This document shows, piece after piece, positions 1 to 45,422 of a stretch of 48,464 nt of DNA. How positions within the stretch are numbered: position 1 is the stretch's first letter; every line of letters starts with the position of its first letter. Made by a program: the position numbers and the translations under genes. The stretch spans positions 1 through 48,464 of the forward strand of contig CAYHAE010000008.1 in assembly GCA_964354545.1 (NCBI GenBank). The letters are read 5' to 3'. The notes beneath the pieces are model-generated. The model worked only from the letters and a program-made list of their open reading frames with translations. It was not told where the DNA came from and searched no databases. Source of the DNA: an uncultured Planctomycetia bacterium. Its GTDB lineage: Bacteria; Omnitrophota; Gorgyraeia; 2-01-FULL-45-10; JAHFGN01.

Positions 1-3000
1 TGGGACTTCACGGGGTCGAGCCCTAAGATGACGTCGAGGTTGAGCTCTCCCTCGTTCAGCCTTCTCTGCAAGAGCTTCTCATAGAGTCCTTTCACCATTG
101 GATAGAAGTCGTCTCGTGCGGGGTTGTCCCCGTAGGGGACGCCCTGCACGTTGCGTTCCCGCGGGGGGCTGTCGATGAGGAGCGTCATCACGATCGCGAG
201 GTCGAGTATGCCCGCCCACGGATAGACGTCCTCCTCGCCTTCCTGCCTCTGCCTATCGTCGATGGCGAGGACGCGGTAGTCGCCGTAGTCGCGGCCGTCC
301 GCGACAGTGGTGATGAGGAAGCCGGGCCTCGGCTCCTCGAGGCCTTCCTCCCGCAGAGAGTTCCTCGAGAGCGTGGAGCGCGTCCTGTACATCTCCTCGA
401 GGCGCTGCCGTAAACCCTCCCTCTTCCCTGAGAGGCTCACGAACTCGAAGCGTATGGGGTTGGCGCTGAAGCGCGCGTTCAAGCGCCTCTCCTTGAGGGC
501 GACGATGTCGGCGAACGTTTCGAGAAGGCCCTCGTCGCCTTCCCGCGTGAGCGGCAGCATGTCGACGTTGACGGCGACGGTGCGCGGGATGACCTTATCG
601 GTCGGCGAGCGCGACCGCGCGACTGCCTTTATGATATCGCGTGAGCCTTCGAGGCTCGAGAGGGTCATGTATTCGAGGGTAGAGAGGGCCTCTGCCGTGG
701 CGCGGGGCGAGGGCGTGGCGGGCGTGCGCACGAACCTCAAGAAGCGGATCGTGCCGCGGACGACCTCACCGGTCTCCTCGCGCGCTATGGCGACGCCTTC
801 CTCCGTGGCTGCCGGATAGGAGCCCGCCTTGTCGTAGAGGCTTCCGTCAATGGGCTTAAGGATGAAGCGCTCGCCGCCCACATCCCAGGCGACGGAGAAA
901 CGCTCTCCGTCTCCAGAGGTGAACGTCCCCGAGAAGTCGTCGGGGAACGCAGAGAAGTCATAGCTCACCCTGTCGGGAGCCGGCTGAGCCTCCTCGATGA
1001 GGCGCGCGCTATCAAGAAAGTCCGTCTCATCATATCTTCCACTCGTGGACTGGCGACCTTGCTGCTTTCCGGGTAAGTCGCCGTCCTCGATACTACTACC
1101 CGAGGAGGACTGGCGCCTGCCAGCTTCACCGTCCGTAGCCGTCCCCGAAGGGGACTGCCGCTCGCGAGTTTCACCTTCCGTAGGCGTCCCCGAAGGGGAG
1201 GTGCGTGTCTCAGGCGGTCCTTCTCGCGTCGAGCGAGATTGTCCCTCACCCGCTTTTTCCAAATCCGAATCCGGCCCTCGCGATCTCAGGTTTGCCAGGA
1301 AAGCTCCCAGAGCGCCAAAAACAGGCACGGAGAGGAGCAACAATGGGTGCGTGACCCCAAAGGCATAATGCAAAATAGCGATATAGAATACGAAGAAGCC
1401 GGCAAACGCACCCATCCCAAAGCCGGTAACGGTCCTTGGCAAGAACTCAGAGCCCTTCTCGGACCCTTTGAGATTCGCCAATAATACCCAGACGATAGAC
1501 CATGGCATCTCGACCACTGATATGCTCGAGACCATCTCCTGGGCTGTCGCGGTCCGGTTGAGATTGAAATACTGTATGGGTATCCATATGAGCCAGCACA
1601 GGACTATCGTTGTAAGAAGATTCCATTTGCGCTCTCTCCAGATCTCTCCCGCGATCATCCGCGGTGTCTTCATTGACGCGAGTTTCTCCTTCAGGGATAA
1701 TCCTTTCAGCTTATCGTAGAACCCGGAAACGAAGAAGGTCCAGAGGATGCTGGATGTCGCGCCCGCGGTCTGGTCTGTGAAGACCCTGAAGGCCTTGCCT
1801 ATCAGATGCGTGTTAGGTATGAAGTTCAGGTAGGCGACGTAATACCAGTTCCACACTATCCCAAAAATAAACCCGTAGACGAGAGCCGCTATCGCGATCT
1901 TTTTATAGTCGAGCTTCTCCTGGTCCCCTTTTAAGATGCCGAAGACTTGAGACAACAGTTCCCCTATGCCAAAATAGATCGTCGTGTTCACGTAATAGGG
2001 TATCGCACTCAAGATCACCGGGAAGCAGAAGTTCGCAAGCACCGCGAATAAGGCGGTGAGGCCGATGGACACGCCGATGACCGCATTCACATGCCCTTTC
2101 ATTACATTCAAGATCCTGCCGGACAAAGACGGGATCTGCGGCCTGTCGACCTCCCCGGCGACGTCTAGCGAAGGTTCGTCGCGCCGCTCTTCTCCGCTCG
2201 TTGAGCCGCGCGGCTCAGGTGGCCCTTCCCGCGTCGCGCGAGACCGCTCCTCGTCTTCACGTTCGCTTTCATCGTGACGGGGTGCGGCTGTTTTAGCAGT
2301 TCCATTTTTATAAATGAACAATACGAGCGGGATCAACCATGAGAGCAATGCATAGGGGTGGAGGTTTGTCGGCTGGCCCCGCAGTTCAGACGTGAGCACA
2401 TCGTACACGGAGAGGCCTAAGGGTATTATCGCTGAAAATAAGACGTGCCAGGTCTTGATGTTAACCAAGGGGCCCTGCCCTTGCGCGGGGCCTTCATCTG
2501 AACCGCTCGTTGAGCTCCTCCGGCCTTGTTCAAGACGGTCGCGCAAGATGGCCGGCGTCCTATTCTCGGTATCGGTGCGCCGTTCCCTCCTGCGCAAGGA
2601 GAGGGTATTGTAGCCCCATCCCTCCCGTTTCGAAAGGAAATCCGAGGGCTTCGTTATCGTCATCCCCTGCATCCCTCCGAGCGCTTCGAGCTCCGGAGTG
2701 GTGACAGGGACAAAGTCGCTCGAGAGGAAATCGTGCGAAAAGAGATGGTGCCCGGTATTCCACGGGGAGGACGAATCCTCTCCGAGCGTATATCCTCCCT
2801 CATTGAGATAACGCTGCTGGAGCTCCGCTACGGTCCACGCGGTCAGCTCTTCTGCATCTCTCTCTTTATCCATGTCATAATGAGGCGCCTTCTCCATGGC
2901 GATCGACACGCCCTGTTCGAGCAATTTTCGCAGGAGGGCGGGGCAGTGTTCTTCCGATGTGGTCCTGCGCACATCGAATGAACCGAAGAAGTATATGGTC

Positions 3001-6000
3001 CTCTCCTTCGGCGCCTCGCCCGGGTAGGCCCACGTGAAGCGTATCCTCCATATATCCTGCTCCTTGTCGATCGGCATTATCATATACTCGCCTCTTGCGA
3101 GGTCGAGGTACTCTTCGAGGATGAATTCCATCCACAGCCTGCTCGGCGCCAGATGGCTGAACGGCGTCCCCATCAGGTTCGTAAAGATCCTGTCCGTCTC
3201 TTGATCCCTCACCATCGCCGGCCTTACCTTCGCCTCGAACTCGTACCTCTTCTTGTTGCTCACGGGCCCGAATCTGGACTTTTCAATGAATATCGCCTCC
3301 GTGAAATCGGTGGCGAGGAGCGCGTGGTGGACGTCGGTGAACGAGTTGGGGTAGAAGAGCCTGGAGTTCGACCCGTCAGGGTTCACCACCGCGCGTATCT
3401 GTCTTAAGAACTCGAGTTTCCTTTCAGAGAAGAGACGCCTGAGCCCGTGAGGCCATTGCGGGGCCCCCCTCGTCGCTTCGCTCCTCGGGACTCCGCTCCT
3501 TGCGGTCGCGTCGCCGCTCGTCGAGTGACGGCCCGTCAAGGGTGGCCACGACTGATATTCCTTCCCCAAAACTAAATTGAACTCGCTCAATCTGTCTTTG
3601 GCCGTGACAAGAACTCTTCCATTATATGCGCGGTCAAATTGCCCGTACGTTATGTCGACGACGATCTCGTCGTCGACCAGGGCCAAATAGTGGTCCCGAG
3701 AAACGATCTGGTTCGATACGTCGGAATATCCGCGATAGCGCCCCTCAAATAAAGCCACAGACCTCCCTTTGAACAATCCGTTAAATGCCGCGCAGAAGCT
3801 ATTGTTCGCGTGAGCGCACATCGTACCTGAGGGGTCTTCCGAATCTCCGTCGGGCTCTCCTGCAGAAAAAGACCTTTTCAATTCCGCGAGCGCCGAGAAT
3901 ATCGCGCCATTGTCCTGATTCAACACCTCGTCCACACGAGAGAGAGTGATCTCGCCGGGTGCGAGGCTGCGAAGCTTATCTGCTATCACCTGCGTCAAGG
4001 CATCCCGGTGACTCTGCACCACATATCTTTCTCCTGTGCTCGTCCCGCTTGTGGAACCCCTGCTTCCGGCATCGCTGAACCCGATCGCGCCCTTCATCCA
4101 CTCTATCATGGGACTTTCCGCTTGATAGAAGGGACGCGGATGGGGAGAGTCTTCAGTCCCATCCACATACCACTGGAGGTTCATTATATCTACGAAACCC
4201 GCTGACTCCGGACCGACCGTCACGCCGAAGTAATCCTCGAGGAGCGCTATCTTTTGCTGATCACTGCATGACGTCATGATCTTATACAGATCATGCAGAC
4301 GGTATCCCAGAACCTGGTTCTGGTTGAGACCCCTCGTCCTTAACGCATTATCGAGGTCGTGGAAGAAGATCCTGTTATCGCAGTAGGAGATATTCGCAAA
4401 ATGAGGGAACATATGGATAAAACCGCTGTCGTGGAACCTGCGCAGCTCGCGGCCGACTTCTCTCACGACAGCAGGTTCGACGTATGTCGTAAAGTCGAAC
4501 ACGCCTTTTACTAGCCTCTTATCGAATTTGTCCTCTAACCCGAGGATCACAAAACCTACTTTCTGACCGTCAAATTCCATCCCTGTATACTCGCCGTACC
4601 CTATAGGGTACGGGACATTGAGGCCTGCCGCGATGCATTCAGATGCTATCTCAAACTCGTTCTGCGCCCTCTTAAGCAGCATCGTCCCTGTCGGCCTCTC
4701 CTCGGCTGTTGTGAATAATCCGAGCCCTTCGTCCGTCATCTCAAATATATCCGTGGGCCTGCCTTCACCCTGGTAATCTATCATCTGCGGCTCTCTGTCT
4801 ATCCCGCCGTAATGGTCTATCACTCCTTTGAGCCGTAAGGCGACTTCTAAGAAGTATATTTCTTTGCCTCCCACTCGGATCGGGTAAGGCAGGTCGATTA
4901 TAATAGACCGCCTTCCGGACGTGCGGTCATAGCGCATATTCTTCCAGCTCGCTGCCTCTCCTATCTTCCTAATGATCGATTCCGGCAGCACGTCGACAAC
5001 GTCCTTGGCGATATGTAATTTCACCGGATGCGGACCTTCGATGTCAAATTCCTGGAGGGGCCTTGCGCTGCCGCTCGCCGAACCGAGCGCATCCGGTCCT
5101 GAGTCCGCGCCCGAGGTGCTCGACCGGCCGCTCCCCTTCGTGCCCTTCCCCTCCCGGTCAATGGTGCTTCTGCCCGCCGCGTCCCGCGCCCGAGCCTCAG
5201 CATCCGGGGCCTGCCCTTTTCCTTTATCCTTTATCCCTAATATATCGAACCAGAATCTCTCTATCTCATCTTTGTACCGCTCGGCGACCTTGTCGAGGGA
5301 GTACTGGAAAAAGAGAATGAAGAAGAATGTCACAAAGGCGCTTAGGAAGGCCTGCCAGAGAGGCGCCTTTTCCCCGCCGAGCACGGCCGCTATCGTCAAC
5401 GCGGAACCGATAAGCGGGACGGCTATCACTTTAAGGAAGCCAAGCGCCTTGCGGAGAAATGTCCGACCGCCGCGCTCGCCCACCGCCTCTTCCAATCCGC
5501 GGCTGAGCCTCGAGGCGATATCGTCCGCCTGGTCTTCGAACGTGGTCGTGCTGGCCGAGGCGGGGTCCTGGGGATCGACGGAGGCAGTGATGTCAATGGC
5601 GAGGAATTGGACCCCATGCCGTGAGAGGTATCGCACATCGTTGACGATGCGCCGCGTGGTCTTTGCTATCTCCTCTTCGGTCGCCCGATGGCTGTTCCGC
5701 GGATCGACCCTGTCCTCAAACGACACGTAGTCGCCGTCGACGGTCGCGAGGGCCGGGCCCTTGAGCGTGCCGGCGAGACTCTTCGCATCTACCACTATGC
5801 CCTTTATGATCGTGCGGAACCCGTACCTCACCGCAAGCATGACGCGGTCGCTCATGGGAAGCACTACCAGCCCATCCCTTACTTCGACAGTCCCCGTCTC
5901 CCGCGCCGCATACCACTCCGGCACGATCCAGTAGACGCCGCTTATGAGGCCCTCTTCCGCAGCCCTTCTGACCCAATTATCGCCATTCACGTCTCTTCCC

Positions 6001-9000
6001 AGGGACGAACTGTCCGGATGCCTGTCGTAGAGGATGAGGGGCAGGCCTCTCGGTATTCTACCGGCCTCGACCTCCTCCTTGAGCCACCAGTAGAATTCGT
6101 CGTGGAGTACGCTCGTGTGAAGCCGGCCCGATGTGCTCGCTCTGCCCTGAGGACTTTCGCTATCACTGCGCGCAGACCCTTCTTCTGCGCCATCGGATCC
6201 ACCCTCCTCTTGAACCTGTGCCCTCATGCGGTTCGACCGCCATCCGAGGAAGATCTTCAACAAACCGTAGCCGGCGAGCACGGTGCCGGCGGCAGTAGCA
6301 ATACTCCAGCCCGCAGGCCCTGCAAGACCTTCCGCGGGGAAACGCTTCGCCGGCCTTGCAGGAGGCACGCGGACAAAAGTCCTTCGGGTGACTATGACAT
6401 TTGGTTCGGTCTTTTCCGCTGTCACATCGGGTTTCTTGTGACGGGCGATCATGAGACCGTTCGCGACAGGCCGGCCTCTGTGGAGGACCAATCTCTCCTG
6501 CCTCACGCCATGATGGATGCGGGCCACGACGGACCGTGAACTGCCTCCGTCGAGCGCGATTGCCTCGACCGCTCCCATACTTTTAAGGATATGTGCGGCC
6601 TCATGGAAGGACACGGCACCTCGCGCCGCGTGCAGCCACACGAGCAGGGCCTTCCCTTCTTTTGTAGTGCCAAGCACCATCCGGTCTGCGCTCGTCAATC
6701 CCGCCAATCTCTCCTCGACGGCGTTCACATAGACCTTTCCATCCATTATCAATCGAGGGCCTGCCATGAGGCCGTGGACGACGCCCTTCTCCTCCCAGCC
6801 CGGAGGAAGCGACCAGTGCCTCTCTATTTTGCTCCCTTTGGTGAAGGAAGAGGCGTATCTCCGCGCGCTTCCGTGGAACGAGATGACAAACCCGTCTTCG
6901 GGTATCTCGGAATTCCCTTTGCCCTGACGGACCTCGTCAACCTCATGCCGCATCGATACCGAACCGTCCCGGCGAGTACGGGAATGCTCCCTCACTATTA
7001 TCTCAATCCCGTAGTCGCTCGTCTCAGTATGTTTCCCATAAGCGGGGGTATAGACGACAAAGCCGTTCCGGCCGCGGGGCACGTTCACGCCGTGCACGAT
7101 GAAGTCGTCCCCGGCTTTCTTTGACGTGGTGAGCCAGTATTTCGGCATTTCGTCCGGTGAAGAGATGACCACCTTCGCAGGTTTTCCGGAAGACGGCTTT
7201 GTAAAACCTGCCATGCTTCGATGAATATTTGGCAGATTGAATACCAATACCTCCCCATCTTTCAGCACAAAGCCGATGGTCACTCCCGTGCGCAGGTCGA
7301 AGAAACCGCCGTTGACAGCGCCTTCCACGGTGAGGCCTGTCTCCTTCTGGAAGGAGGCTACCATAGCCTCAAGAGGCGCCGCTTCGAGCCCCGTCTGCCC
7401 ATTGGGATGCGTCGAAGGGACGATCTCGAGAGTCGTATCCCGGAGGTCCGCTGTAATGCGGTGCGTTTCGATGTATCCGTAGTGGCCGACACCGTAGTCA
7501 ACAGAATCTAAAGGATAGCCCGCGTGCACCTGAGGGGCAGCCCTCGCTGCGTCCTGACCGCACAGGCTCGCAGCGCCGACGAGGCCGCCTAGGGCGATGA
7601 GAAAGCCGCGTCGGGTCATCGGTGCCGCATACTCTTCCATACGGTCCGCGATCTTTTCAAGAATGTCTTCGACTCCGCTCGTCGAAAGCCTGACCTGCGG
7701 GAAGATATCGTTCCTTTCAGACAGAGCGACTATCCTTGGCCGCACGATCCCCACGCTCCTGTCCATTTCGCCGATACTGAAAGGCAGGGCTCGAGAAAAT
7801 CTGTTCCCCCGCTGCCATACTGTTGCAGCCACATTCCAGCTCAAGGTCTCCTCTGCGATCTTCGCGAAACCGGAATACATATGGAGCATGAAGAGCGGCA
7901 TGCGATCAAGGAAGTAGGGCACGAGGGAGCGCTCGTTCGCGTCCACCGTGAAGAGGAACGCGCCCTCCCTCATCTCCGTGAGGTTGCGCGCCATCTGCAT
8001 GATCGCGGCGTCCGACATGAGCGACAGCACATTGTTCATGAAGACTACATCCGCGGACCGGAGGCATGCGACGGTCAGAGGATCGAGCAGGCTTGCGCAG
8101 GCAAAGCCGAACGTCATGCGCGCGCGTATCTCGGGAAGCATCCGGTTGACAAATGCGAGCCCCTCGCGTGTCTCGGGCGGTTCTGTCCCTTCGACCGGGA
8201 AACTGGTGACCACATTCCGGTATGCCGCGTCGATGGTGCGGCTGTCAATGTCGACTCCCATCATGAAGAACCTGAGCCGGTCTATCCACCCTCTCCACCC
8301 GGGGATCCCCTTTGCCGCGTCCAACATCACTGCCCCGGCAGAGGCGAGATTGCACCCATAAGAAGACCCCAGGTCCAGGACCTTTATCGCGATGTCCCCT
8401 CCCCCGAAGCTCCGCAGGACTTTAAGGAGGTTCCGCCGGAACAGCTCCTCAAGGTAGCCGAGCTGGACGGGGTACCTCATCACCCACGAGCCGGTCTTGT
8501 TTCCCGCGATCCTCAGAAGATCGTGGAACGCGGGCGACTGGAGATCGACGAGATCCTGTGCGTACCAATGGGTGTCGCCGCCGTACACATTCCACAGGGT
8601 CTCCGAACTCGCTATCTGGGCCACCGCGTGGCCAACAGGATTACCCACGGTATCGACGAAGCCGGAGCCTATCCGCTGGAGCGCGGCAGATACCGCGGCG
8701 TAGAGGTCCTTCTCTAGAATAGCAATCGCATTGGCCTGGCCATGCACGAATGGAATGGACCCGCCGAAAACGCCTCGTCCGCTGGTCGATATCGCACCAT
8801 GGGGTACCTCATCGAGGACCCTCTCGACCTGAGCGCTCAGATGACCGCTTGTCGAGAGCCGTGTGTGCTTTTCGTCATGTTCGGGCCGGACCTCAGTGAA
8901 CGCTCTTAAGTATCCAAGCGCCGCATCGCGAACCCCAGAGTTTGGATGTTGTGCTGCCCGTTCCAAAAACCTCCTGCCGCTCTCCCTATTCTCTCTCGCT

Positions 9001-18000: not shown

Positions 18001-21000
18001 CCTTCCAGCACTCCCTCTTCGTCCTGCGCCAGCAGGCTTATATATTCATCCAGGTAGGGAGTTTCTTGCGGATCGCGGTGTGGTGCAATTTTTTTCAACG
18101 CCTCCTGGATAGCCTTATCATGCACTCGATTTTTCTCGGTGAGCACCTTCAAATACTCATCCGCAAACCAGGCCATCATCCTTTCATCGGTTCCCTTATC
18201 CGGCGCCGGTACGTCTATGAACGGTCCTATCGCGCGCTTTTTCGCAAGCTCGCGGGAAAACTCCCTTATGATGCGCGCCATGTCATTATCGGTGTAGCGT
18301 CGCTTCGGGACGAATATATCGCCCTTGCCGCCTCCGTAAGGGACCCCGATAACGGCGTTCTTTATGCTCATCAACGTCGCAAGTCCGGCCGCCGTCTCTT
18401 CCGCTTCTTCGGGAGTATCCCCCTCTCCGACCAACCATCGCAGACCGCCCTTCCCTGCGCCGCGCGCGTCGTTCTGCAGCACTCTGAACCCCCACAATGA
18501 AACCGTATCTCCGTCATCCAGAGCAACCTTGAAGTGCACTCTTGTCACACGCTTCGCGCTCAAAGCCTTTCTTCTTACAGCCCAGTGAAGCTTCATCGTG
18601 TCGGCGGCCCGAGCGATATTGTCCTCAGCCGCTTCTAATATAGTAAGAGGATGAACGGCCGACTCCTTCCGTGAATACAAAAGCGTCGATGTGGTATGGG
18701 GCGAGCCGACGATCGAGGCATAGCCTGTTTTGCGCTCTACCTCATCCGGGGTCACGATCTTATTGGAGGTATCGATCAATGATAAAATGTGCAAGCCCGT
18801 CTCCGACATCATGGAATTAAATTTGGCCGTAAAATACGTATCTGCATATGCAAAGTAGTCGGCGACTTTTGAACGTTTTCCCTTTGAGGTTACTTCTACA
18901 AGAAGGTCTATATCGGACAGAGGGCCGATCTCTTCGGGTAAACCGCGGTCGATGCTTCCGAACAACCAGATCTTTAATATCCCGCCTGTACGGGAGCCTG
19001 CGTGATCTGCCACAAACTGTGAAAGGACATCCCGGAAAACGCTGTGCGCTGACGGATCGGCTGTCGTGAGCAATCTTATAAAGGCGTCCTGATTTTCGCA
19101 GCCTAACTGTGAAGACGCTTTGGCAAGGCTTTCTTCCCATATCGTATCGAACTCTGCGTGTAGCGATTTCTTTAACGAAGCGGCGAGGCCGAAATAGCGG
19201 GAAAAGGAGAATTTTTTCAGGCGGCCTTCATCTCGTTCTGCCCCCGAGGTTGACTGGCGACCCTGCTGCTTTCCGGGTAAGTCGCCGTCCTCCACAGTAC
19301 TACCTGAGGAGGGCTGCCGCTCGCGAGCTTCTCCATCTGTAGGCGTCCCCGGAGGGGACTGGCGCTCGCTCGCATCACCATGAGTAGCCGTCCCCGGAGG
19401 GGAGGAGCGGGTCTCCTCCGAACGCTGTTTCAATAAAGAAGAGAGGAGGGCCTTGATCTCAGCGGGTCGTACCGCTACGTTACCATCTAACTCAGGTTCA
19501 TACCCCACCTCCGCGATATGGAGCCCGAGGATCCTGCTACCCGCAAGCCTTCCGGAAAGCACCTCCCGGATCGCCTTGAACGTCTTGACATCGGTATCAA
19601 TGGAAAGGAATACGTTCTCATAACTCTTCCCTGCCCCCAATTCAAAGGCGATGCCTCTTGCCTCCAAATCCTGCCGGACCTCATCAATGTGCCCGGTCCC
19701 CACCATTCCGGTCAGTGTATCTTCCCAAAGGTCCCAGTTCCCTACGCCGAGTATCGTGAGCCGGCCGGGAGGAACCACCTTATGCTCAATACCATAAAGC
19801 CAGAAGCCGCCGTTCGTGAATTTCGTTTCGTAACAGTCGGTATGCTGGTCCGGAGAGATGATATCCGCTTCGACACCATATATGCGGTTCAGCGCATCGT
19901 AGAAAGGCAGAGAGAGCATATGGGCCCCGCCCATCACGACAGGTATGGCCCCACTCTCTTTAGCTTTTCGGATATGGTCCATGAAGAAATCTACCAGCTC
20001 TTCATAGACCCGTTCTTCGTCGGGGTGCATCCAGTTCGCGTTTATCTGGGCGACGTCTTTTCGCAGCGGGCCTACGGGATGCTCGGTCGTTCGGACCTCG
20101 CCCTGCTCAAATAACGGGAACGACAGAGAAGAGGGCATCAGTCCCATCTCGATCACATAGAATGCCTGCCCTTGCCCCGCAGCCGGTACCCCGCTCGTCG
20201 AGCCTCGCTGCTTCTCCTCAGGGCGAGATCCCGAGTCGGAGCGAGGGATCGACTGCCGCTCGCGCGCTTCACCGTCCTTAGGCGTCCCCGAAGGGGACTG
20301 GCGTTCTGCACCAGGTGTTGGTTCTGGAGGTACAATCGTCTTTGTGAGGACACCGTGTCCCCCTATATCGACCGTCAACAGAGATACGCCGTCCGCTTTC
20401 AGGGTGACATGCCGCGGTTCGGGGGAGAGATTGGTGACAAGGACAGTATCTGTCCCTGCATGCCTCACGAGAACCGCGCCTATATGATCATTGTCGGTGG
20501 TGAGCGCGTGGAATTCGGCGCCGGCCCGGACCCACGCAGTGATCGACTCAAGGAGCCCGTCATGGAATTCCCGGAATTCGAGGTTCCCATCCCGTCCCGC
20601 GTCGAATTCACCCGGTCCGGGCTCGCCAAACATGAACGGGACAGGGCTCAAGACGCCGAACCTGTCCGGACTATATTCCATGACACTCGTCCGCATGAGG
20701 TGCGTGAGGTGGAGGATCAAGAATGCCGCATACAAAGCTTTCAGTTTCGCGATCTTACCTTTGTCGTCGGCAACGTCGCGGACTAAGGCGGCGAGGCTTC
20801 CATTATATTGGGACTGATCGTGGTTGTTGAAATACATGAGAAGTCGCTTGTTGCCTCCGAGGCTCCAGAGCCTGCCCTCCAGGGCGTTAGTGAGCCACCT
20901 GTAGGAAATAGATGCATGGGCAGCCATGAGGTCGCGGATCCCTCCGAAGTAGATCTCATCGAAAGGATATTGCCGGGCAGGGTCTTCCCACTCAGCGACG

Positions 21001-24000
21001 AGCGTCTTTATACCGTTACCTCTCAGGAGCATGGGCAGCACGGGACTTATCTCGCCCCCGAGGTCCAGCCGGACAACAGGAAATCCGACGGTCCTTACCC
21101 ACCAGATGAGCTGAAGGTCAGCCTCCGGGTTCCTGTCGTCTATCGCGTCATCCCATGTCTTTATTATCTCTTCATGCCCCCGCCACCATACCCGGCTGTA
21201 GTCCCCTTCGCTCAGAGGGTGGCGACCGTCAAAGAACGAACCTGTGTGGCTGAAGACCGCGTCGTACGCCATGTCGACTCCATATGCCTCAGCAACTTCC
21301 TTCAGCCGTCTGAAATCGTGCGACGTACCGGCCCACGATGCGAACGCGATGGGTGAATAGGTACAGAGCATGTAAGGACGGCTTAGACACAACGTACCCG
21401 GATTCAACAAAATACGGTCATAAGATCGTGCGAGGCGGGGGATCTCTTCCGTGAGCCACTGGACGGCCGTCCTGCCCGTTGCCTTCAATTCTTCCCACGG
21501 CGCTTCGAGGAGGAGGTTCATCTGGAGCGTGCGCTTCCCGCGGTCGGGCACTGTGCGCGCGCGTTCGTGGAACTCCTGTTTCGGATAGACCCTTGCGAGC
21601 GAATTCCATGCTCCGTCAATGTCACCCGACATGGGGTCGTTGAACCATATATCATAGGTAACCACTTCACCCTGCGCGGTGCGCACGGGAATACGGATGT
21701 TGAACTTGTACCCGAAATGGCCCTCAGGAAGCGCAACACACCACGTCCACTTCTTGAGCGCCGCATCGTATGCCACGGGGCGGCGGAGCTGCTGCCATCC
21801 TTCTTGAAGAGCAGCGACACCTTCTGGAGGCTGGTCCACGCCAATCCTGATGTCACCCCTCGACCAAGGCCGTCCTGTGAGGAAGTTCCCTCGCAGCGCG
21901 AGGCATTCTTCATGGGTGCGCACGTAATCGATAACTGCCTGGAGCACTGCCTCGCCGAGCCCCTCCGGATTTCCTTCCGGCGCTCTGACGTTGAGAATCT
22001 CGGCGAGCTGAGAGATCCTGTCTGCCCTGCGGGTAAGCTGTTCGCGAAGGGCCCGCTCCACACCCTCTTCCGTCAATGTGAACCGGACACCGCTGTCGGT
22101 AGCCTGAACGTTGCCCGCAACAGCATAGAGGTCCTGGTAGCGCACCTCGCCCTTGAATTGTTCCCACCGTCTGCGCCACTTCTCTTCCTGGGCGCTTATG
22201 AACACTTCGACTCTTTCGTCCCTGACGCCGCCGGCCTGATAGACGTGTGCGAGAAGGCTTACGAGGTGCCAGGGTGCCCATACAGTATCAAAATCAAGAT
22301 CGTGATCCCATTGCCCGATATAAAGGACGAGCGCATGAAGTTCGAGGTATCGATACGGTTCGTCCGCAAGCCGCCTCTCGAGGTCCTCCGCGGCCTTTCG
22401 CAGGTCATCATAGGTGATATCCGTCCCTCGCCCTGCGGCAAGCGAGTCGACGAATCCCTTGCAGAGAGTTTTGAATTCTTCGGGATCATCAGGGCGGGGC
22501 AGTGCGGGCAACGCACGCATGAGCGCCTCATTCGCCTTCCCCTCTCTCACAAGATCCCTCAAGGCCTTTAAGAATGCCTCATCGTCACGCTCTCCTGCTG
22601 AGCCGGTGGTCGAGGCGCGCGGCGAAGAGCCTGTCTCCTTGTCCGCGGCGAGGACCCGCGCGCAGATATCCCGTATCTCATCGTCACCTGTTGTCGCGAC
22701 GGTGAGTGCAAGCCGCTCCCGAACTTCATCTGAGATCGTAAGAGTATCCACTCGTATCGACCTTATTACGATATTCTTTAAGATCGACCTCTGGAGTTCG
22801 GCATCCCTCCTGATGAGCCTCATCCCGACGCCGGTGAGCCTGTCTGTGCCGAGGATCCCGAAGATCACGTCGGGCAGGCTCTCGAACGGCTGGCCGCTGG
22901 TCCCGCTCGTCGAAGAGCGCGGCTGCGCCTCATCTGTCTCTCCCCGGCTCCCCTCCCCGATGATCTCGAACTTGACGTGCTGTCGCGAGAGGTCCACCTC
23001 TATCACCCTTGCCCTGTAGAGACGCCTCTCATAACCGGGCCCGGATATGTTATCGTACAGGTCATCGCATCGTATCACCCGGGCGATCCTGGAGGCGGGG
23101 ACGAAACCGGACGTGGTGCGGCCGCCGTGCGTCTTCGCGGTCACGACGATGCCGCTCTGCTTTCCGGTCTGGCTATTGAACCGGACGTCGTGGGCAACGA
23201 CCGTCATTTCAGCGCCTAATCTAAAGGATGCCCTGAAGTCTTCCGCATCGATCGGCCCTCTCTCGCCAGAGCTACGAGGCGGCGCGCGTCTTTCGCCTTC
23301 GCCCAACAGGACCCCGAGCCTCTTGACCATCTGCTTTTTCGAAGGGTCAGCCGACACTTTCTCGAGAAGCCCTTGCATCTTGGATCTCGCTTCCTGTCCA
23401 TAGGGGCCTGCGAGCAGGTGTCGTGCCGCAGGCACGACGTGCCCTTCAACAAAGGGACCCCTTGGATCATTGAGGGCAAAGGCAATGTCGTATGCGGCAC
23501 TGCGCGCGGCAAAGCTGCTCTTATCCGAAAGTGCCCCGACCGTCCTCTTCGCGAACTCGCGGATATCCTCTCTCTCGTTCGTGAGCAGGCCCACGCATCG
23601 GCTGACATCGGTCTGCTCGAGCCACAGGCGTGCGCCGGAAGCCGCCTCCCGCGCGACGACCCCATCGGCTTTCGCCAGCACCTCTTCCAGCGTCGGCTCG
23701 ACCGAATCCCTGACATACGCGGCATTGCGATCCCTGAGGGCATACGAGAGGTTGGCAACCGCGGCGATCATCGCCACGACGCCGCGCCCGGCGCGCTCGA
23801 CGATGGTCCTCCCCGCAAACGCCTTCACTCCGGGGATCTCAACCTTCAAGAGCCCGATACACTGTCTTATGACCTCCTCGTCAGGAACATCAACGAGAAG
23901 TCCGACGGCTCTTTCCTGTTCCTCTCTCAGTGCCGCGATCTCCATATCCGTGAGCGCCCGGCACTCTCCGGGTCCGAGCCCTTCAAGCGCTATCGGCCCC

Positions 24001-26858
24001 ACCCGTACCCTTGTGAGCGCGGTCACCGAATGACCGATCGCTCTCATCAACTCTTTGACCTCGTGATACTTTCCTTCCCGTATCGTGAGGAGGATGACCG
24101 TTCTCGGATAACCGGATGAGCCTGTCTCCCGTATCGAGTCGTCGTGAAGGATCTCCGCAGCCGCAGGCTGGCTTTCGTACGCGCGATCTCCCGCCCTGCG
24201 GTCATGGAGCCGGATGCCTCCACGCCGCAGTCTCTCAATGCCTGCTTCGTCTACATCACCCTGCACGACCACGCGATACGTCTTTTTCGTATGCGTCGCA
24301 GGCATGATGAAATGCGCGAGCATCTCCGCATCGTCCGTCATTATGACGAGGCCGCCGACATCGTAGTCGAGCCTGCCGATCGGATACATGTCCTCTATGT
24401 CAACTCCGTGGGCCTCAAGCACCCCATATATGCTGCGGCCCATCCTCCCTTCCTCGTCTTCGGTGGAGACGACACCCAACGGTTTATTCATGAGGATATA
24501 TCGATGGGCTTCTACGCCTGACGTGCTCTGGCGCTCGCCAGCTTCTCCGTCCTTAGCCGTCCCCGGAGGCTGGCGCTCTTGCTTGTCATCAGGCAAAGCG
24601 CCGTCCTCCATCTCACTTCCTGAGGAGGAGGACTGCCGGTCGCCGGCTTCACCGTCCGTAGGCGTCCCTGGAGGCTGGCGCTCTTGCTTGTCGTCAGGCA
24701 AAGCGCCGTCCTCCATCTCACTTCCCGAGGAGGAGGGCTGCCGCTCGCCGGCTTCACCGTCCGTAGGCGTCCCCGGAGGGGATTGCCTTTCTTGAGCTTC
24801 ATCTTCCGTAGACGGCGCATGAAGTCCCTGTGAAAAGGAAATAAAATCTTCGCGAAAGATCTGGTTTAGATCTATGCTTTCAAACTCTGCGCGAGCCTCT
24901 CTCAGCGTCTTCCTGACGTCTCTGTCAAGCCACGGTTCTTCCAAGATCATACCGATGTAAGCTTCGGAGGCAAGCAAGTTTCTCATGTCGTGCCACAGGT
25001 CCCTGATTATGATGGACTGGATCTCGTGCAGGTCCTTGATGGCTGAGTGCGGTGAGAGCCTTACGGTAAACGCGGAACCCTTCCCCACCTCGCTCTCGAC
25101 GCTCATCTCGCCGCCCCAGTGCTCTATCAATTGCGTCACCAGATAGAGGCCTGTGCCGCTGCGCAGGACATGCTCTCCCTCAGGGGCGATGCTCCCCATA
25201 AATTTGTGTGTGCCGAGCTGCGGGATGTCCTCAGGAGTGATCCCGACACCCGTATCTCTCACCTCTATCACGACATGAGGGTCAACCCTGTACGCCCGGA
25301 CGTAGATCCGCCCCCCCTGTTTGTTATATTTCACCGCATTCGTAATGAGGTTCTTTACCATGGAGCAGAAGACCCGCCTGTCTCCCGTCACGGTGAGGGC
25401 GGTATCGCACGTGACCTCTGCTATTAAGCCGCGTTCATTCATCGATCGCTTGTTCTCGTCGATGATATGAGCGATAATCGCGGCGACATCGAGCTCCTCC
25501 ATCGTCGAGCTCCCGTAGGGCAGGTCCTCAAGGTCTCCCCTGTACTCCTCGAGCTTATCCTGCAATTTATGAGCGCAATCGATGACTACCCCGAGCCATT
25601 CGAGGACCCAGTTGGCTACTTGCTCTGGCACGACTATCTTCTTTGTTTCCAACCCGCGGCATATCGTGCTCGCTCTTTCTGCGATGTCCTCGAAGACGCC
25701 CCTGACCCCTCGAATGGTCACCTCGACGACGCGGATGCCCTGTCCGCGCCGTATGAATATCTGCTCTATCTCCTGCCTCCTGTCAACGTTACCTCCGCGC
25801 AGCGTTCTACCCTCGATCCTCTCCAAGATCGCCTCCAGGCCCGCGAGGATGTCGTCGAACCCTTCGGCCCCTGAACCAAGCATGGCATCAAGACCACGCG
25901 CGGAGGTCGCATAGTACTCCGCTGTCTCTCCGTCTTTCTCGAGTCTATGTAAAAAGGCTTCGGCGGCGCGTCGATGCACCACGTCTGTCGCTGGGAAGGG
26001 TTTTTCAGATGGTGAGCCCGTCGAATCCGCTCCGCTTGTCGAGCCTCGTATTTCCCCTGCTGGGCGAGATCCCGAGCGATAGCGAGGGGTCGACTGCCAC
26101 ATGGATGCTGTTTCACTATCTTGAAGCGCCCTCAAATGGTTCTCAACGATCCGTGAGTCGGCAAAGAAGATGCGGGGCATGATCACACATGAGGCATCAG
26201 GATGGTCTTCGGCCCAGAAGCGCAGTTCAAGGGGGAATATCGCGCTGTGCGCGATGACGGGCGCGGGGACCCTTGCGCCGATGGTATCCCTGTATCCCTT
26301 TAGCTGGCGCGAGGTATCAGGGATGAGAAGTGCGGGGAGGCCGAGCGATTGGGCGAGCTCAAAGGCGCCCTTATCGATGGGGTACCACGCACACTCGTCC
26401 GCAAGTTGGGCGCGCAGGACCCCGTTATCTCGCTTCGGAGAGGCTTTCGGGATAGGACGGCCCTTCGTCTCCTCGTCTTTATACACCCCTATCACTCCAT
26501 CGTGAGAGATGTGCGCCTGGTAGGACCTGCCCTGTATGGCGCAGGGGACGAGGTACGAGTCTCCCTTAGCGGGCTGCTTCCTGTCGAAGTATACTGCGAT
26601 ACCCTCTTTCTGCTCGTTGAAAGTGCCTTGGAGGCGTGCGATGTCGATGCGCGAGGAGCGGATGAGCCAATCGAGGTACCACTCGAGCCTTCCCATCTCC
26701 CTCCTCTCGGGATCGGGGGCATTGACTATGCCGGGCGCCCTTACGTTGCTATCGGGGTATGCCCAGGAGATGTCGTAGGCGATAAAAGTGGCTATGAGGA
26801 CGAGGGATATTGTCCTAATTATGAGGCGAATTTTTTTATTATCATTAGCATATATCAT
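1..26858 (-). CDS. Giant multi-module protein (>=8,952 aa, 3' end beyond the left edge), putative polyprotein with RxSTSG linkers
   Basis: Manual translation of the minus frame (codons at + positions 3k..3k+2) from ATG 26858 ([36 protein letters not shown]...) to position 3 (...[12 protein letters not shown]) shows no stop. None of the minus-strand ORFs listed in 1-26858 lies in this frame, as expected for an edge-open ORF. Many intact enzyme motifs fall in this frame. Confidence 0.96.
   Translation of the reverse strand, partial: [8952 protein letters not shown]
1038..1250 (-). repeat. Linker repeat cluster (RTSPSG, RQSPSG, RQSSSG, RQSTSG)
   Basis: The 63-bp segment 1050-1112 matches 9957-10019 with 1 mismatch and 19254-19316 with about 6; contains TCCCCGAAGGGGA hairpins. 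Confidence 0.9.
1285..2090 (-). other. Giant protein domain: Mpv17/PMP22-like polytopic membrane domain
   Basis: GIGELLSQ...KLDYKKI...[13 protein letters not shown]...FTDQ...[13 protein letters not shown]...[10 protein letters not shown], with extra TM helices on both sides. Confidence 0.68.
2590..3400 (-). other. Giant protein domain: divergent Rossmann/methyltransferase-like domain
   Basis: [26 protein letters not shown] and YLNEGGYTL resemble class I MTase motif I and the LxxGG motif. Confidence 0.4.
3600..3840 (-). other. Giant protein domain: transglutaminase/papain-like Cys-His-Asp domain
   Basis: GTMCAHAN (Cys 3816-3818), DHYLALVD (His 3690-3692), VVDITYGQF (Asp 3654-3656). Confidence 0.72.
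4230..4900 (-). other. Giant protein domain: protein-kinase-like fold (RIO/Kdo/WaaP-like) with atypical catalytic loop
   Basis: [15 protein letters not shown]...[37 protein letters not shown]. Confidence 0.7.
5290..6120 (-). other. Giant protein domain: UPF0489-like (arginase/deacetylase-fold) domain plus two TM helices
   Basis: [42 protein letters not shown]; hydrophobic segments at about 5300-5440. Confidence 0.65.
6240..7619 (-). other. Giant protein module: internal Tat-like signal + phosphodiester glycosidase (NAGPA family) + C-terminal TM helix
   Basis: [99 protein letters not shown]. Confidence 0.88.
7800..8420 (-). other. Giant protein domain: CheR-like SAM methyltransferase
   Basis: [53 protein letters not shown]. 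Confidence 0.72.
8885..9760 (-). other. Giant protein domains: ComEA-type helix-hairpin-helix DNA-binding domain followed by HEAT-like repeats
   Basis: VNCA...LLRIVGF...AEIVRTR...[19 protein letters not shown]; then [18 protein letters not shown] and [14 protein letters not shown]. Confidence 0.75.
9855..10115 (-). repeat. Linker repeat cluster with tandem GTCCCCGAAGGGGAC palindromes
   Basis: Copies at 9898-9912 and 9914-9928; shares segments with 1050-1112 and 16078-16127. Confidence 0.9.
10150..10700 (-). other. Giant protein domain: divergent CheR-like/class I methyltransferase fold
   Basis: [44 protein letters not shown]. Confidence 0.5.
10915..12100 (-). other. Giant protein domain: FkbO/Hyg5 (Rid/YjgF superfamily) chorismatase-like
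   Basis: [64 protein letters not shown]. Confidence 0.9.
13920..14460 (-). other. Giant protein domain: class I SAM methyltransferase, PrmA-like
   Basis: [37 protein letters not shown], FNIG. Confidence 0.75.
14780..15260 (-). other. Giant protein domain: low-molecular-weight protein tyrosine phosphatase / ArsC family
   Basis: CX5R(S) loop [10 protein letters not shown] at 15210-15239, [17 protein letters not shown], KVFLL...DTPD. Confidence 0.85.
15987..16140 (-). repeat. Linker repeat cluster
   Basis: About 15998-16049 is nearly identical to about 20252-20303 ([19 protein letters not shown]). Confidence 0.88.
16185..17040 (-). other. Giant protein domain: uridine/nucleoside-kinase-like P-loop domain (degenerate)
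   Basis: [57 protein letters not shown]. Confidence 0.8.
17165..18640 (-). other. Giant protein domain: complete Glu/Leu/Phe/Val dehydrogenase (glutamate dehydrogenase-like)
   Basis: [110 protein letters not shown]. Confidence 0.95.
18690..19000 (-). other. Giant protein domain: minimal nucleotidyltransferase (MNT / pol-beta superfamily)
   Basis: [10 protein letters not shown]...SDIDLLVEV (hG[S]x..DhD signature). Confidence 0.8.
19242..19410 (-). repeat. Linker repeat cluster
   Basis: RSSPPGT / ERQSPPGT / RQPSSG / [16 protein letters not shown]. Confidence 0.88.
19440..20160 (-). other. Giant protein domain: arginase/agmatinase (ureohydrolase) family
   Basis: [16 protein letters not shown] (DxHxD), VFLSIDTDV (SxDxD), ILGLHIAEV. 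Confidence 0.82.
20190..20305 (-). repeat. Linker repeat cluster
   Basis: ERQSPSGT...[19 protein letters not shown]; the second part also resembles about 26031-26098. Confidence 0.85.
20340..21900 (-). other. Giant protein domain: CBM48/AMPK-type carbohydrate-binding module plus GH13 alpha-amylase-family domain
   Basis: CBM: [16 protein letters not shown]...IWFNDP...DGAWNS. GH13 conserved regions: [18 protein letters not shown] (I), VVRLD (II), LVAEW (III), YFNNHD (IV). Confidence 0.85.
22960..23220 (-). other. Giant protein domain: S1/OB-fold-like RNA-binding domain
   Basis: GIVVTAK...[10 protein letters not shown]...[17 protein letters not shown] resembles the S1 pattern. Confidence 0.45.
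23925..24505 (-). other. Giant protein domain: RsuA/RluB-family pseudouridine synthase catalytic domain
   Basis: [13 protein letters not shown], catalytic [49 protein letters not shown]. Confidence 0.92.
24516..24800 (-). repeat. 105-bp (35-aa) tandem linker repeat, about 2.5 copies
   Basis: AGGCAAAGCGCCGTCCTCCATCTCACTTCC at 24591 and 24696; unit [14 protein letters not shown](D/E)RQ(S/P)[17 protein letters not shown]. Confidence 0.92.
25040..25460 (-). other. Giant protein domain: histidine-kinase ATPase (HATPase_c)
   Basis: N-box [11 protein letters not shown], G1 VRDTGVGI, G2 SGTGLYL, and [24 protein letters not shown]. Confidence 0.9.
26760..26858 (-). other. Signal-peptide-like N-terminus of the giant protein
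   Basis: Basic n-region KKIRLIIR, hydrophobic [13 protein letters not shown], then DISWA|YP (S-W-A before a possible cleavage point). Confidence 0.65.
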
Positions 26859-37245: not shown

Positions 37246-37857
37246 CTAGGCCCCTTCGGATGAAGGCACCAGGAGATATGCGGTGATCCCCATCGTGATG
37301 CCAAGCGTCCTCTCGGCCCCGGCGGGCCCCTGCGTCATCTGCACTTTCGAGATCTTGATGACCGCGGAGAATTCCTCTTTGAGAAGGCGCACGTACTCTC
37401 CGAACGCTTTGTACCTGCCCATCGCCGTGATCGCGATCTGCATCTCCTCGATGGCATAACCGGGGATCGACACCGCGCGGCCGTTGATATCCGTGACGCT
37501 GCGCTTCTTCTGCGGCTGCATCGACTTTATCTCTATGCCGCACCGCTCGGCATAGACAGGCAGGTCCCTCAGGATGGCCTCTTCTTTCGACGGAAACCGC
37601 GCGTGCAACACCTTGAATTTCCTGAGCAGGGCGTCCAGCGATTTCACCATGGACTCATCGTCGGTCACGTACGCGCTCTTCTTTATCTCGGCGATCTCGG
37701 CCTCCATCGCGCGCAGTTCCCTCTTGAGGTTCTCGAACCTGTTCCTCTGCGGTATATAGATGAGCCATATGAATACCACAAAGGCAAGGAGGACAATGCC
37801 CGCAATGGCAAGGATCTTACGCTGCCCCTCTGTTGACCGTATCTTTTTTAGATCCAT
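37246..37857 (-). CDS. pilO: Type IV pilus assembly protein PilO
   Basis: TM + coiled coil + ferredoxin-like C-terminus (FPSKEE..L...GRYKAFGEYV); cluster context. Confidence 0.8.
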   Translation of the reverse strand: MDLKKIRSTEGQRKILAIAGIVLLAFVVFIWLIYIPQRNRFENLKRELRAMEAEIAEIKKSAYVTDDESMVKSLDALLRKFKVLHARFPSKEEAILRDLPVYAERCGIEIKSMQPQKKRSVTDINGRAVSIPGYAIEEMQIAITAMGRYKAFGEYVRLLKEEFSAVIKISKVQMTQGPAGAERTLGITMGITAYLLVPSSEGA

Positions 37858-38181
37858 GGTTCCTCTATCCGCCTTCGCAGAGTACCCCGGCCATGGCCGG
37901 GGGTGAATGCGGTAGACGGTACTGCTTCGGCGGTCGCCACCAAGGCTTCGGCGACCGTCCGCCGACGATTCAGTGGCGGACGGATGTCACACCTGACTAA
38001 GGCAGGCGGATACCCCCTCCGCATTGATTTGCGAAGCAAATCAGGAGGGGGTAAATTAAGGTACCACGCCTGCGTGCCGAAACGCCCGTTGCGTGGCACT
38101 TCGGCGTGCAGGCACGGGCATGCCCGTGGGGTTCCATAGGGCATAGGAAAGGGCGCTTCCCTTCTATCGCGCGCAGTGCTG
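37858..38181. repeat. Cluster of REP/MITE-like palindromes between pilM/N and pilO
   Basis: CCCCGGCCATGGCCGGGG (37885-37902), TACCCCCTCC..TGATTTGC-GAA-GCAAATCA-GGAGGGGGTA (38011-38053), CACGGGCATGCCCGTG (38113-38128), GGTCGCC..GGCGACC (about 37932-37956). Confidence 0.75.
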
Positions 38182-39777: not shown

Positions 39778-39810
39778 GCGTCCCTTTTATCTCCTATGCT
39801 TATTAAGGCA

Positions 39811-39838
39811 ATTATATCATGGCGATGTCAAAATACAA
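39811..39838 (-). promoter_or_regulatory. Possible sigma70 promoter for pilM
   Basis: TTGTAT, 16-nt spacer, TGn-TATAAT. Confidence 0.45.
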
Positions 39839-39876
39839 TGGATGAGTAATGAGAAAGTCCCTCGCGAGCGATGTCC

Positions 39877-40605: not shown

Positions 40606-40624
40606 TTTTAACAGTGCCTCAACC

Positions 40625-41820: not shown

Positions 41821-41857
41821 TATAGGGCATCCTTTCCGACTATTGTAACGTGAACCG

Positions 41858-44759: not shown

Positions 44760-44936
44760 CGAGATCACATAGATCTCGCGCTCTTCGCTCTCTGCCTCTT
44801 GCGAAACCCGCAAGGCCCATCACTCGCGAATTCTTGCCATGATACGCCTGTTACGCCGCTTAAAAGCCGGACGGCGCACACCATGGCACGAAACCGCCCA
44901 CGCGTTCAGAAAACATTACATGTATGGCGCGTCAGG

Positions 44937-45359: not shown

Positions 45360-45392
45360 CATTCACCTCCTTTTTGAGTTATCGTAAGTTCA

Positions 45393-45422
45393 ATTATACA
45401 TAAATACAGTATCTGTTGTCAA
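45393..45422 (-). promoter_or_regulatory. Consensus sigma70 promoter for the major pilin
   Basis: TTGACA (45417-45422), 18-nt spacer, TATAAT (45393-45398). Confidence 0.75.

Follow-up and report, generated by a model that had tools for sequence, protein, structure and literature searches.

Can an open reading frame (ORF) that strings together some twenty unrelated enzyme and membrane modules specify a single working protein, or is it the precursor of many? The question is raised by contig CAYHAE010000008.1 of an uncultured bacterium, a stretch of 48,464 nucleotides (nt) referred to here as the window. Its minus strand carries, from an ATG at position 26858 down to position 3, a single stop-free frame of 8,952 amino acids (aa) as assembled, with an open 3′ end (the giant ORF). 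Our answer is that the giant is a polyprotein with processing sites at a short peptide motif, R-x-S-T-S-G, that recurs between its modules, a reading to which we assign a probability of about 0.5. The frame itself is the 5′ 26.9 kb of a giant gene from a probable Omnitrophota bacterium and belongs to a published class of multi-enzyme giants. The phylum is taken from the source names of its nearest long homologues, P0001 and P0002, which are Candidatus Omnitrophota or Omnitrophica; the genome size, the share of giant frames and a dockerin-type giant in the genome (see below) would fit it.

A hexapeptide recurs between the modules of the giant

The giant ORF dwarfs every other frame of the window, the second-longest having 838 aa. 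Along its 26.9 kb it contains no stop codon, compared with 144-410 in each of the other five frames; the GC contents of its three codon positions are 0.60/0.45/0.66, and coding periodicity is present in six of six blocks of 1500 codons. An earlier reading of this DNA, made from the letters alone (hereafter the sequence-only reading), had described a hidden minus-strand frame of at least 8,952 aa, and the absence of in-frame stops together with the ATG start bears this out.

Repeated DNA, 73-96% identical over at least 11 contigs of the genome, encodes low-complexity linkers such as ERQSPSGTPTDGEAR. Within these linkers and beyond them one peptide stands out, R-x-S-T-S-G, which occurs 19 times in the giant ORF. 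The tetrapeptide STSG is found 20 times where 0.175 would be expected, R-x preceding it in 19 of the 20 cases. The corresponding 4-mer enrichment score is 74.9; none of 200 shuffles exceeds 14.5, and none of 45 pseudo-giants assembled from ordinary frames exceeds 20.4. Genome-wide, the 44 frames that reach 1,000 aa or more (144,122 aa together) have 91 copies of R.STSG, and the shorter frames (1,704,830 aa) have five, of which at least three lie in fragments at contig ends. Leave-one-out counts in the giants show how complete the motif is: beside the 91 full copies there is one lacking the arginine, two lacking the first serine and none lacking the glycine. Position 4 is occupied by T (91), P (18), S (14) or G (1), and position 5 by S (91), T (30) or another residue (2). 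In ordinary frames R.STS is followed by a residue other than G 101 times and by G five times, which is the background ratio. The residues flanking the motif show no conservation. At the 91 sites six codons are used for Arg and four for Gly, and both Ser positions draw on TCN as well as AGY; the constraint at the motif is at the level of the peptide. A function of the motif in DNA or RNA was considered in view of a codon skew at the sites (see below) and is less likely, given that the codons of R and G vary and that the motif of another lineage (G051, see below) mixes both arginine and both leucine codon families.

With the wider pattern R-x-S-[TPS]-[ST]-G, 27 sites are found in the giant ORF, and none of them lies inside any of its 14 domain envelopes (p ~0.01 for 21 clusters). 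The same holds for another giant frame of this genome, on contig C33, where 0 of 18 sites fall inside 12 Pfam domains and most neighbouring domains are separated by sites. Where neighbouring sites are more than 60 aa apart, the median distance between them is 376 aa (interquartile range 268-552), an ordinary size for a protein. The core motif alone splits the giant ORF into 21 modules, M00-M20, those after the first measuring 100-1,085 aa; the sequence-only reading had arrived at about 21 modules as well.

The coincidence of sites and fold borders was followed at the level of structure in M09, modelled by AlphaFold2 with a five-sequence alignment (aa 4862-5380). Between query residues 54 and 462 the predicted local distance difference test (pLDDT) score is about 85 or more, bar internal loops; on either side it drops below 50. 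As the RGSTSG sites at aa 4906-4911 and 5325-5330 correspond to query residues 45-50 and 464-469, the borders of the fold lie within 1-3 residues of the sites, and the top Foldseek matches of the model are full-length, stand-alone chorismatases (5a3k, 5ag3 and 4bps; TMt 0.75-0.78). In this one case tried, then, the motif provides a rational way to split a giant for structure prediction.

Junctions stay while the motif is replaced

Comparison with other giants places the motif at homologous junctions. The GDH super-module of the giant ORF is 72% identical to that of P0001 and 65% to that of P0002, and the GDH module occupies different positions in P0001, P0002 and P0003. In P0001 it has R-x-SPSG on both sides, and RQSPSG at aa 3604 of the giant ORF aligns with the P0001 site at aa 1116. 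Module M15 is homologous to aa 2743-3015 of P0001, both homologues starting about 23 aa after a site. At aligned positions flanking the chorismatase module, RGSTSG of the giant ORF is replaced by [AR]SLG in P0005 (both sides) and P0004 (downstream) and by PLDNG in G127.

Each related genome has a version of its own. Within the same family, G001 has R.SSSG (9 in 3,316 aa) and G002 has RGSASG or RKSSSG (13 in 3,353 aa); within the same order, R.SPSG accounts for 11 of 11 SPSG in G003/P0001. Elsewhere, GARL[AS] is found in G051, of another family (34 in 14,048 aa and 29 in 11,243 aa), RAE.R in P0003 (17), x-SLG in P0004 and P0005 (15 each) and PLDNG[KR] in G127 (58 in the 19,999 aa examined). The G127 frame, on its contig C2 (loci L056-L058), is open over 45,891 aa and comes from another family of the same class; PLDNG[KR] is sometimes doubled there, 7 aa apart.

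A proposed polyprotein, processed at its junctions

In the reading that we favour, the giant product would consist of a signal-anchored N-terminal module and about 20 autonomous modules of ordinary size. Among these would be divergent extra copies of housekeeping enzymes, small membrane proteins and a glycosidase that is exported by the Tat route and anchored by its tail. R-x-S-T-S-G, situated in disordered linkers at nearly every junction, would be recognized by a single factor acting in trans, for which an endopeptidase specific to the sequence is the likeliest candidate. The gene would thus work as a protein-level operon, giving one translation product that is cut at the sites. Each piece would then fold by itself and be targeted separately, some remaining in the cytoplasm and others entering the Tat pathway or the membrane. 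A trans-acting reader is suggested because an invariant peptide is confined to giants, exactly between folded units, and because each lineage has exchanged its whole set of motifs with the junctions remaining where they were. A protease is favoured over a kinase or a glycosyltransferase because the lineage motifs share no modifiable residue. That the product probably does not act as one folded protein had been proposed in the sequence-only reading; the junction motif, its replacement between lineages and a fold that ends at the sites all agree with this, and it is from them that we infer that the chain is cut, at what point and by what kind of enzyme.

The distribution of twin-arginine signals fits such a scheme. 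In the giant ORF, a Tat-like signal, MTRRGFLIALGGLVGAASL (MTRRGFLIALGG), begins 19 aa after the site RLSTSG and precedes the NAGPA domain of M13. A twin-arginine regular expression finds four signals in the giants of this genome, all of them 3-50 aa after a site (joint chance 6e-6); for the two that had not been seen beforehand, the chance is 0.003. The signal on contig C26 carries a lipobox, and TatC is encoded in the genome. With a loosened expression, a signal was found 4 aa after RAEIR in P0003 and 3 aa after PLDNG in G127, so that in strongly punctuated giants six of six Tat-like signals lie 3-50 aa after a site. Of two such signals in G207, one directly follows TNSAVL and the other follows no motif.

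As to the enzyme, C39-type Cys/His peptidase domains encoded in the sister giants C25 and C3 are candidates on the basis of sequence, and these domains keep their Cys and His. M16, with its Cys...His...Asp pattern, was also considered as a possible protease, but no search assigned it to a family: it had no match in Pfam, PDB phmmer or the collected giants, the ESM Atlas returned unnamed clusters only, and its single-sequence AlphaFold2 model (pLDDT 43) was unusable.

If this picture extends beyond one genome, some Omnitrophota lineages might run protein-level operons, their giants being true polyproteins with a lineage-specific junction code that co-evolves with a dedicated processing enzyme, much like the polyproteins of RNA viruses. 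We offer this generalization tentatively, as falling a little short of an even chance, and the code that forms part of it is put forward with the same reserve: R-x-S-[TPSA]-S-G in this order, and x-SLG, PLDNG, GARLA or RAE-x-R elsewhere.

A number of observations weigh against processing. The first concern the motif itself. Codon use at the sites is skewed, TCG-ACG-AGC being found in about 40 of the 91 and one in-frame 11-mer being present in 46 copies genome-wide, and in G001-G003 the codon of the last Ser is AGC at 48 of 50 sites; because of this skew, much of the recurrence of the motif is by common descent of a linker cassette. Nor are all giants punctuated. No R-x-STSG site is present in the C3, C13 and C1 frames of the same genome, and C25 has one. 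In k-mer tests no strong motif emerged from P0002, G304, G116, G326 or G013, and G205 gave a weak signal only. Among nine giants from nine other families, picked solely by the presence of NAGPA, none had a 4-mer above the threshold and six lacked any recurrence; the weak recurrences seen in the sample were TN[AS]AVL in G207, GARLA in G276 and RF[ST]E in G097. Within the giant ORF, the NTase/GDH junction (aa 2715-2730, window ~18669-18716) lacks the motif, whereas the homologous junction of P0001 has LRASPSG; either a site has been lost here or the two modules are genuinely fused.

Other points concern the reader and the topological evidence. The C39-bearing giants themselves have 0-1 sites, nothing links C39 or M16 to the motif, and S8, C14 and CHAT domains were not found in the genome. 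The Tat-like signal of the giant ORF covers the full TIGR01409 profile with 14.3 bits (E 0.04), below the cut-off of 16.7, and the twin-arginine expression was written after two cases had been seen and was loosened later. Generic hydrophobic segments are not enriched after sites in this genome (8 observed, 8.5 expected); elsewhere p was 0.06 in G051 and in G001/G002, and the remaining genomes were not significant. Internal twin-arginine helices occur in some polytopic proteins, so an uncut, threaded chain is conceivable. Finally, the sequencing runs listed as matching the sequence are four DNA runs from sediment metagenomes, in which 7-11% of the sampled words occur, and no RNA run is among them; the DNA runs gave short related Logan contigs, none longer than 728 nt and most of them 90-99% identical to the sequence.

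Alternatives to processing

The alternative that survives best, an unlikely one in our estimate, is an uncut, membrane-tethered multi-enzyme scaffold in which the hexapeptide is a linker element read for another purpose. It might be where an adaptor or chaperone docks, a tag for secretion or sorting, or a Ser/Thr target that the kinase-like modules of the giant itself modify. Such giants are treated as single membrane-anchored polypeptides in published work, and protease searches of the genome identified no enzyme tied to the motif. A Ser/Thr-rich motif on a chain with kinase-like and HATPase modules would suit modification, but x-SLG and PLDNG at homologous junctions, and GARLA and RAE.R elsewhere, have no acceptor residue in common; a flexible linker alone, for its part, needs no invariant residues. 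Likewise, the NAGPA domain lies between a signal-like and a stop-transfer-like helix and could be a periplasmic loop of an uncut chain. A Kyte-Doolittle scan of the giant ORF finds the N-terminal anchor and 12-13 further peaks, some of them overlapping. After the anchor (aa 10-28), the sole above-threshold segment ahead of aa 6853 is aa 4122-4140, which includes two Glu. In this interval lie the ATP-, NAD(P)- and S-adenosylmethionine-dependent domains and the Tat-like signal. Because a single N-in anchor is followed by no credible transmembrane helix for more than 6,000 aa, the topology of one chain would be contradictory: an uncut product would place more than 6,000 aa of nucleotide-cofactor enzymes beyond the membrane, and the modules for GDH, kinase, methyltransferase and pseudouridine synthase would end up outside the cell. 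The mixture of topologies on one chain, pointed out in the sequence-only reading, is supported by the hydropathy scan and the order of domains, and cleavage at the junctions would remove the paradox.

We regard as improbable that the motif has no present function and is simply the conserved core of a linker cassette, spread by module duplication or shuffling and perhaps via recombination at the linker DNA. The high identity of the linker repeats over at least 11 contigs would agree with this, as would the codon skew with its recurrent 11-mer, a last Ser nearly fixed as AGC in four genomes and short metagenome contigs that join different linker positions. Descent alone would nevertheless have to account for flanks that have diverged to noise around five positions invariant at 91 sites, for the scarcity of copies that have lost just one of R, the first S and G (three at most), and for codons that vary freely at R and Gly, as those of GARL in G051 do over both Arg and both Leu families; genome-wide switches of a single motif position (T, P, S, A) would need selection or flank-sparing conversion. 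Our own reading is that the Ser codon families belong to an inherited linker cassette and would have been frozen by purifying selection on the peptide.

The joins just mentioned are found in short contigs from four sediment metagenomes and connect separate linker positions, namely window 1150-1205, 2510, 6119, 9846-9909, 12133 and 19252-19356. They may reflect genuine shuffling of modules in related populations, or else misjoins caused by the repeats. The contigs also show two pairs of indels, at 4153/4158 and 15161/15165, whose members compensate each other and keep the frame.

The window is the complete contig C8 (1-48464) of a 2.23-Mb genome in 102 contigs, 99.7% complete (G000), some contigs of which contain runs of N, seen as XXXX in the translated frames. 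The end of contig C88, when reverse-complemented, is an exact copy of the first 55 nt of C8; C88 also matches window 1-1055 at 91% identity, and a search of the bin for the same 55-mer found it on no third contig and found nothing that continues C8 leftwards. Because this contig end is common to C8 and C88 only, the giant frame runs off C8 where the assembly graph branched at a repeat, and 8,952 aa is a truncated product. Extending the contig leftwards to the end of the gene, the check proposed with the sequence-only reading, thus located the break but reached no stop. That the frame is not one gene, being an assembly chimera across linker repeats or a row of genes with stops hidden by recoding, is very improbable, for although the contig ends in a repeat, linker repeats could mislead an assembler and joints are seen in Logan contigs, the frame lacks stops throughout while the neighbouring genes end at ordinary ones, comparable frames of 5,500-45,891 aa are found in independently assembled relatives, some on 200-500-kb contigs, and compensated indels preserve the frame in related populations.

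Relation to known systems

Multi-enzyme giants of Omnitrophota have been described as 'Archaeovorin-type' (West-Roberts et al. 2023, bioRxiv 10.1101/2023.11.21.568195) and as 'multi-enzyme metabolic clusters' (Nielsen & Lui 2026, bioRxiv 10.64898/2026.06.07.730766), so that the sequence-only reading was right in reporting such genes from this phylum. The giant ORF resembles them in being a very long single ORF with many unrelated Pfam families, a signal peptide and transmembrane segments, in having T2SS/T4P-like (type II secretion system/type IV pilus) genes on its contig, and in its poor sequence conservation and fragmentation at contig ends. HATPase and methyltransferases are among the commonest domains reported, and both types were matched here, the methyltransferase weakly. 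Criteria for giant length have been set at >20 kb (Seymour 2023) or >=10,000 aa (Nielsen & Lui 2026); at 8,952 aa and 26.9 kb, truncated as it is, the giant ORF exceeds 20 kb but stays below the 10-kAA and 90-kb thresholds of the two catalogues. It also differs in that the assembled part has no SecA-DEAD, C39, NUDIX or glycosyltransferase match. A divergent SecA-DEAD domain is present in most full-length giants according to West-Roberts et al. (2023), and that of the present giant may lie beyond the contig end.

Whether such giants are one chain or are cleaved was asked by West-Roberts et al. (2023), who state that cleavage points are unknown. Nielsen & Lui (2026) model them as single membrane-threaded polypeptides. 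Neither of the two accessible texts, supplements aside, mentions a lineage-specific motif that punctuates junctions. A literature search on Omnitrophota and polyprotein returned nothing, and one on Omnitroph and cleavage site returned nothing on giants by title or abstract. It appears, then, that the giant ORF is a member of the published class and that the junction punctuation is the new part.

The same genome also holds what looks like a giant of the dockerin type (West-Roberts et al. 2023). Contig C3 (100,745 nt) consists entirely of a single 33,581-aa frame that has neither a start nor a stop at its ends, with 47 D[VL]NGD repeats (dockerin/TSP3-like) and two C39 domains. The giant ORF, in contrast, has one D[VL]NGD and no dockerin Pfam match, and C3 in turn has no R-x-STSG.

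Viral polyproteins, such as those with picornavirus 3C or coronavirus PLpro/Mpro sites, are the closest parallel to the processing that we propose. They too are one ORF with many unrelated products and a short motif per junction, the motif differing by lineage at fixed junctions and the pieces being destined for different compartments. The differences are that the giant lies on a cellular chromosome and encodes metabolic and envelope enzymes, and that its cleavage and cognate protease are as yet proposals. Tail-anchored Tat substrates, a class that includes hydrogenase small subunits, are a parallel for one module: M13 has a twin-arginine signal, a folded domain, a single C-terminal helix and basic residues, in a genome with TatC. 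It differs from them in being embedded 6,400 aa into the frame, and its signal scores below the TIGR01409 cut-off.

The motif supplies exact candidate cut points, 27 in the giant ORF and 91 core sites in the genome, with analogous motifs in at least five other lineages. Should cleavage be true, the giants would be a cellular analogue of viral polyprotein expression, and claims on protein size limits would be revised; should protein-level operons be true, the 'largest proteins in nature' would be precursors and the topology paradox would be gone. Should cleavage be false, the motif would still mark a conserved reader of linkers that needs explanation.

Modules of the giant and their genomic context

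Domains were sought in ten overlapping pieces of about 995 aa with Pfam and NCBIfam profiles at curated cut-offs, and the resulting features are listed in Table 1. Sixteen different Pfam families are spread along the giant ORF, each with one best stretch and none dominant by copy number, so that the mosaic of unrelated modules described in the sequence-only reading is supported by profile matches. Its individual assignments fared unevenly. HATPase, pseudouridine synthase, the arginase-like domain, GDH, low-molecular-weight (LMW) phosphotyrosine phosphatase, FkbO and NAGPA are clear matches, but GH13, NTase, the nucleoside kinase, PrmA, ComEA-HhH, HEAT, UPF0489 (E 0.23), the kinase-like domain and Tat remained below cut-off. 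Both CheR-like modules, CBM48, and the S1-like, Mpv17-like and MTase-like (methyltransferase-like) domains were recovered by no profile search of the giant ORF. For the EExxH and Cys-His-Asp modules no family was found, though EEALH and C...H...D are present in the sequence.

Table 1. Features of the window; residue numbers refer to the giant ORF
Feature	Residues (aa)	Window coordinates	Strand	Evidence
N-terminal hydrophobic signal/anchor, then DISWAY (module M00, aa 1-276)	10-28	26775..26831	-	Kyte-Doolittle 1.92
HATPase_c (M01)	493-602	25053..25382	-	E 1.1e-22
RsuA/RluB-type pseudouridine synthase (M02)	787-971	23946..24500	-	TIGR00093 7.7e-31
Weak GH13-like module (M04)	1420-2223	20190..22601	-	DUF3459 E 0.08; neopullulanase 2z1k E 0.0024
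Arginase/agmatinase-family domain (M05)	2289-2424	19587..19994	-	Arginase E 3e-9; GG-x-H and D-x-H-x-D kept
Weak NTase match, just upstream of GDH super-module	2627-2662	18873-18980	-	NTP_transf_2 E 0.004
GDH super-module (GDH N and C domains, weak nucleoside-kinase match)	2728-3610	16029..18677	-	nucleoside kinase 0.005
LMW phosphotyrosine phosphatase	3873-3993	14880..15242	-	LMWPc 2e-5; C-x5-R-S intact
PrmA-like methyltransferase match (M07)	4145-4228	14175..14426	-	E 3e-4, below cut-off
Chorismatase (FkbO/Hyg5) fold (M09)	4915-5323	10890..12116	-	TIGR04444 1.2e-44; L-PSP 4e-17
ComEA-type HhH and HEAT (M11)	5714-5765; 5937-5989	8892..9719	-	HHH_3 3.5e-4, HEAT_2 0.002, weak
Tat-like signal	6415-6446	7521..7616	-	twin-arginine regular expression
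NAGPA phosphodiester glycosidase (M13)	6642-6804	6447..6935	-	E 5e-22
Hydrophobic C-terminal tail of M13, then RSNRMR, then site RASTSG	6853-6871	6246..6302	-
Kinase-like region (M15)	7397-7532	4263..4670	-	weak: Bud32/Kdo kinase E 0.003/0.13
M16, Cys...His...Asp pattern	7606-7782	3513..4043	-	sequence pattern only
Hydrophobic-segment cluster (M18-M19)	8139-8524	1287..2444	-	hydropathy scan
M20, cut by contig end	8608-8952	3..1037	-	90% identical to C88 aa 1477-1806
27 sites R-x-S-[TPS]-[ST]-G in 21 clusters		1038..26048	-	pattern
Starts of the 19 R-x-STSG cores	271, 776, 1314, 2218, 2534, 4036, 4335, 4906, 5325, 5663, 6000, 6390, 6906, 7245, 7600, 7777, 8114, 8217, 8602
Sigma-70-like promoter match TTGACA-17-TATATT, TG extension, ~250 nt upstream of ATG		27107..27135	-	11/12, consensus match only
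Housekeeping genes: pgpA, CDP-alcohol phosphatidyltransferase, MiaB/RimO-type radical SAM, RodZ-like, FtsK, UppP/BacA, dUTPase, PNPase		27262..36341	-
T4P/T2SS-like cluster: PilO/GspM-like, PilM-PilN fusion, three N-methyl pseudopilins, 838-aa ORF, PilC/GspF, PilB/GspE		37246..48403	-

Several catalytic motifs are intact, in the arginase-family domain and the phosphatase (Table 1) as well as in the pseudouridine synthase, which starts 5 aa past the site RQSTSG and keeps its RLD motif. The N and C domains of the ELFV dehydrogenase match with E 5e-31 and 4e-57. For M09, the TIGR04444 score of 152.9 bits is below an equivalog-style cut-off of 325, and the L-PSP match corresponds to the Rid-like half of the FkbO/Hyg5 chorismatase. 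Ordinary stand-alone copies of the pseudouridine synthase, GDH and the LMW phosphatase are encoded elsewhere in the genome; because of these, and of a stand-alone LspA, the enzymes of the giants are, by sequence, divergent extra copies and not the sole ones. The N-terminal module M00 has a counterpart of 80% identity at the start of the giant on C18, and it has DISWAY in common with P0002. A search for M00 homologues among proteins of 484-2000 aa found none, and a DNA-pattern search of genome contigs with aa 1-1000 gave only generic HATPase and pseudouridine synthase matches, from other phyla.

Upstream of the giant gene lies an AT-rich gap of about 400 nt (26859-27261) that holds the promoter match of Table 1; the consensus scan gave four matches where 2.7 were expected from shuffles. 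No obvious Shine-Dalgarno sequence precedes the ATG, and an Rfam scan of the window returned no match. The sequence-only reading had referred to Omnitrophota giants near T4P/T2SS loci; here such genes lie on the same contig, 10-21 kb upstream and not adjacent, with eight housekeeping genes between. The PilM-PilN fusion of this cluster has 531 aa (38182-39777), its 838-aa ORF (41858-44374) belongs to no Pfam family, and no secretin was found in the window. At third codon positions the giant ORF has a GC content of 0.66 (0.60-0.72 by block), less than the 0.73-0.83 of five measured neighbour genes at 27262-48403.

Giant frames make up a considerable part of this genome: 26 stop-free frames of at least 1,500 aa, 18 of them touching a contig end, total 122,885 aa, or 16.5% of the genome. 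The giant on C33 (a 6,909-aa frame) contains two near-identical tandem modules, each made up of a ThiS-like beta-grasp and a divergent membrane domain that resembles LspA (signal peptidase II). A C-terminal Gly-Gly next to a site was sought in the ThiS module, and none was clear. The tandem modules span aa 410-673 and 847-1118 (locus L042, minus strand from base 19999; numbers 243 lower than in the 6,909-aa frame), with junction sites bounding each, and the canonical lspA of the genome lies at C1:8909-9310.

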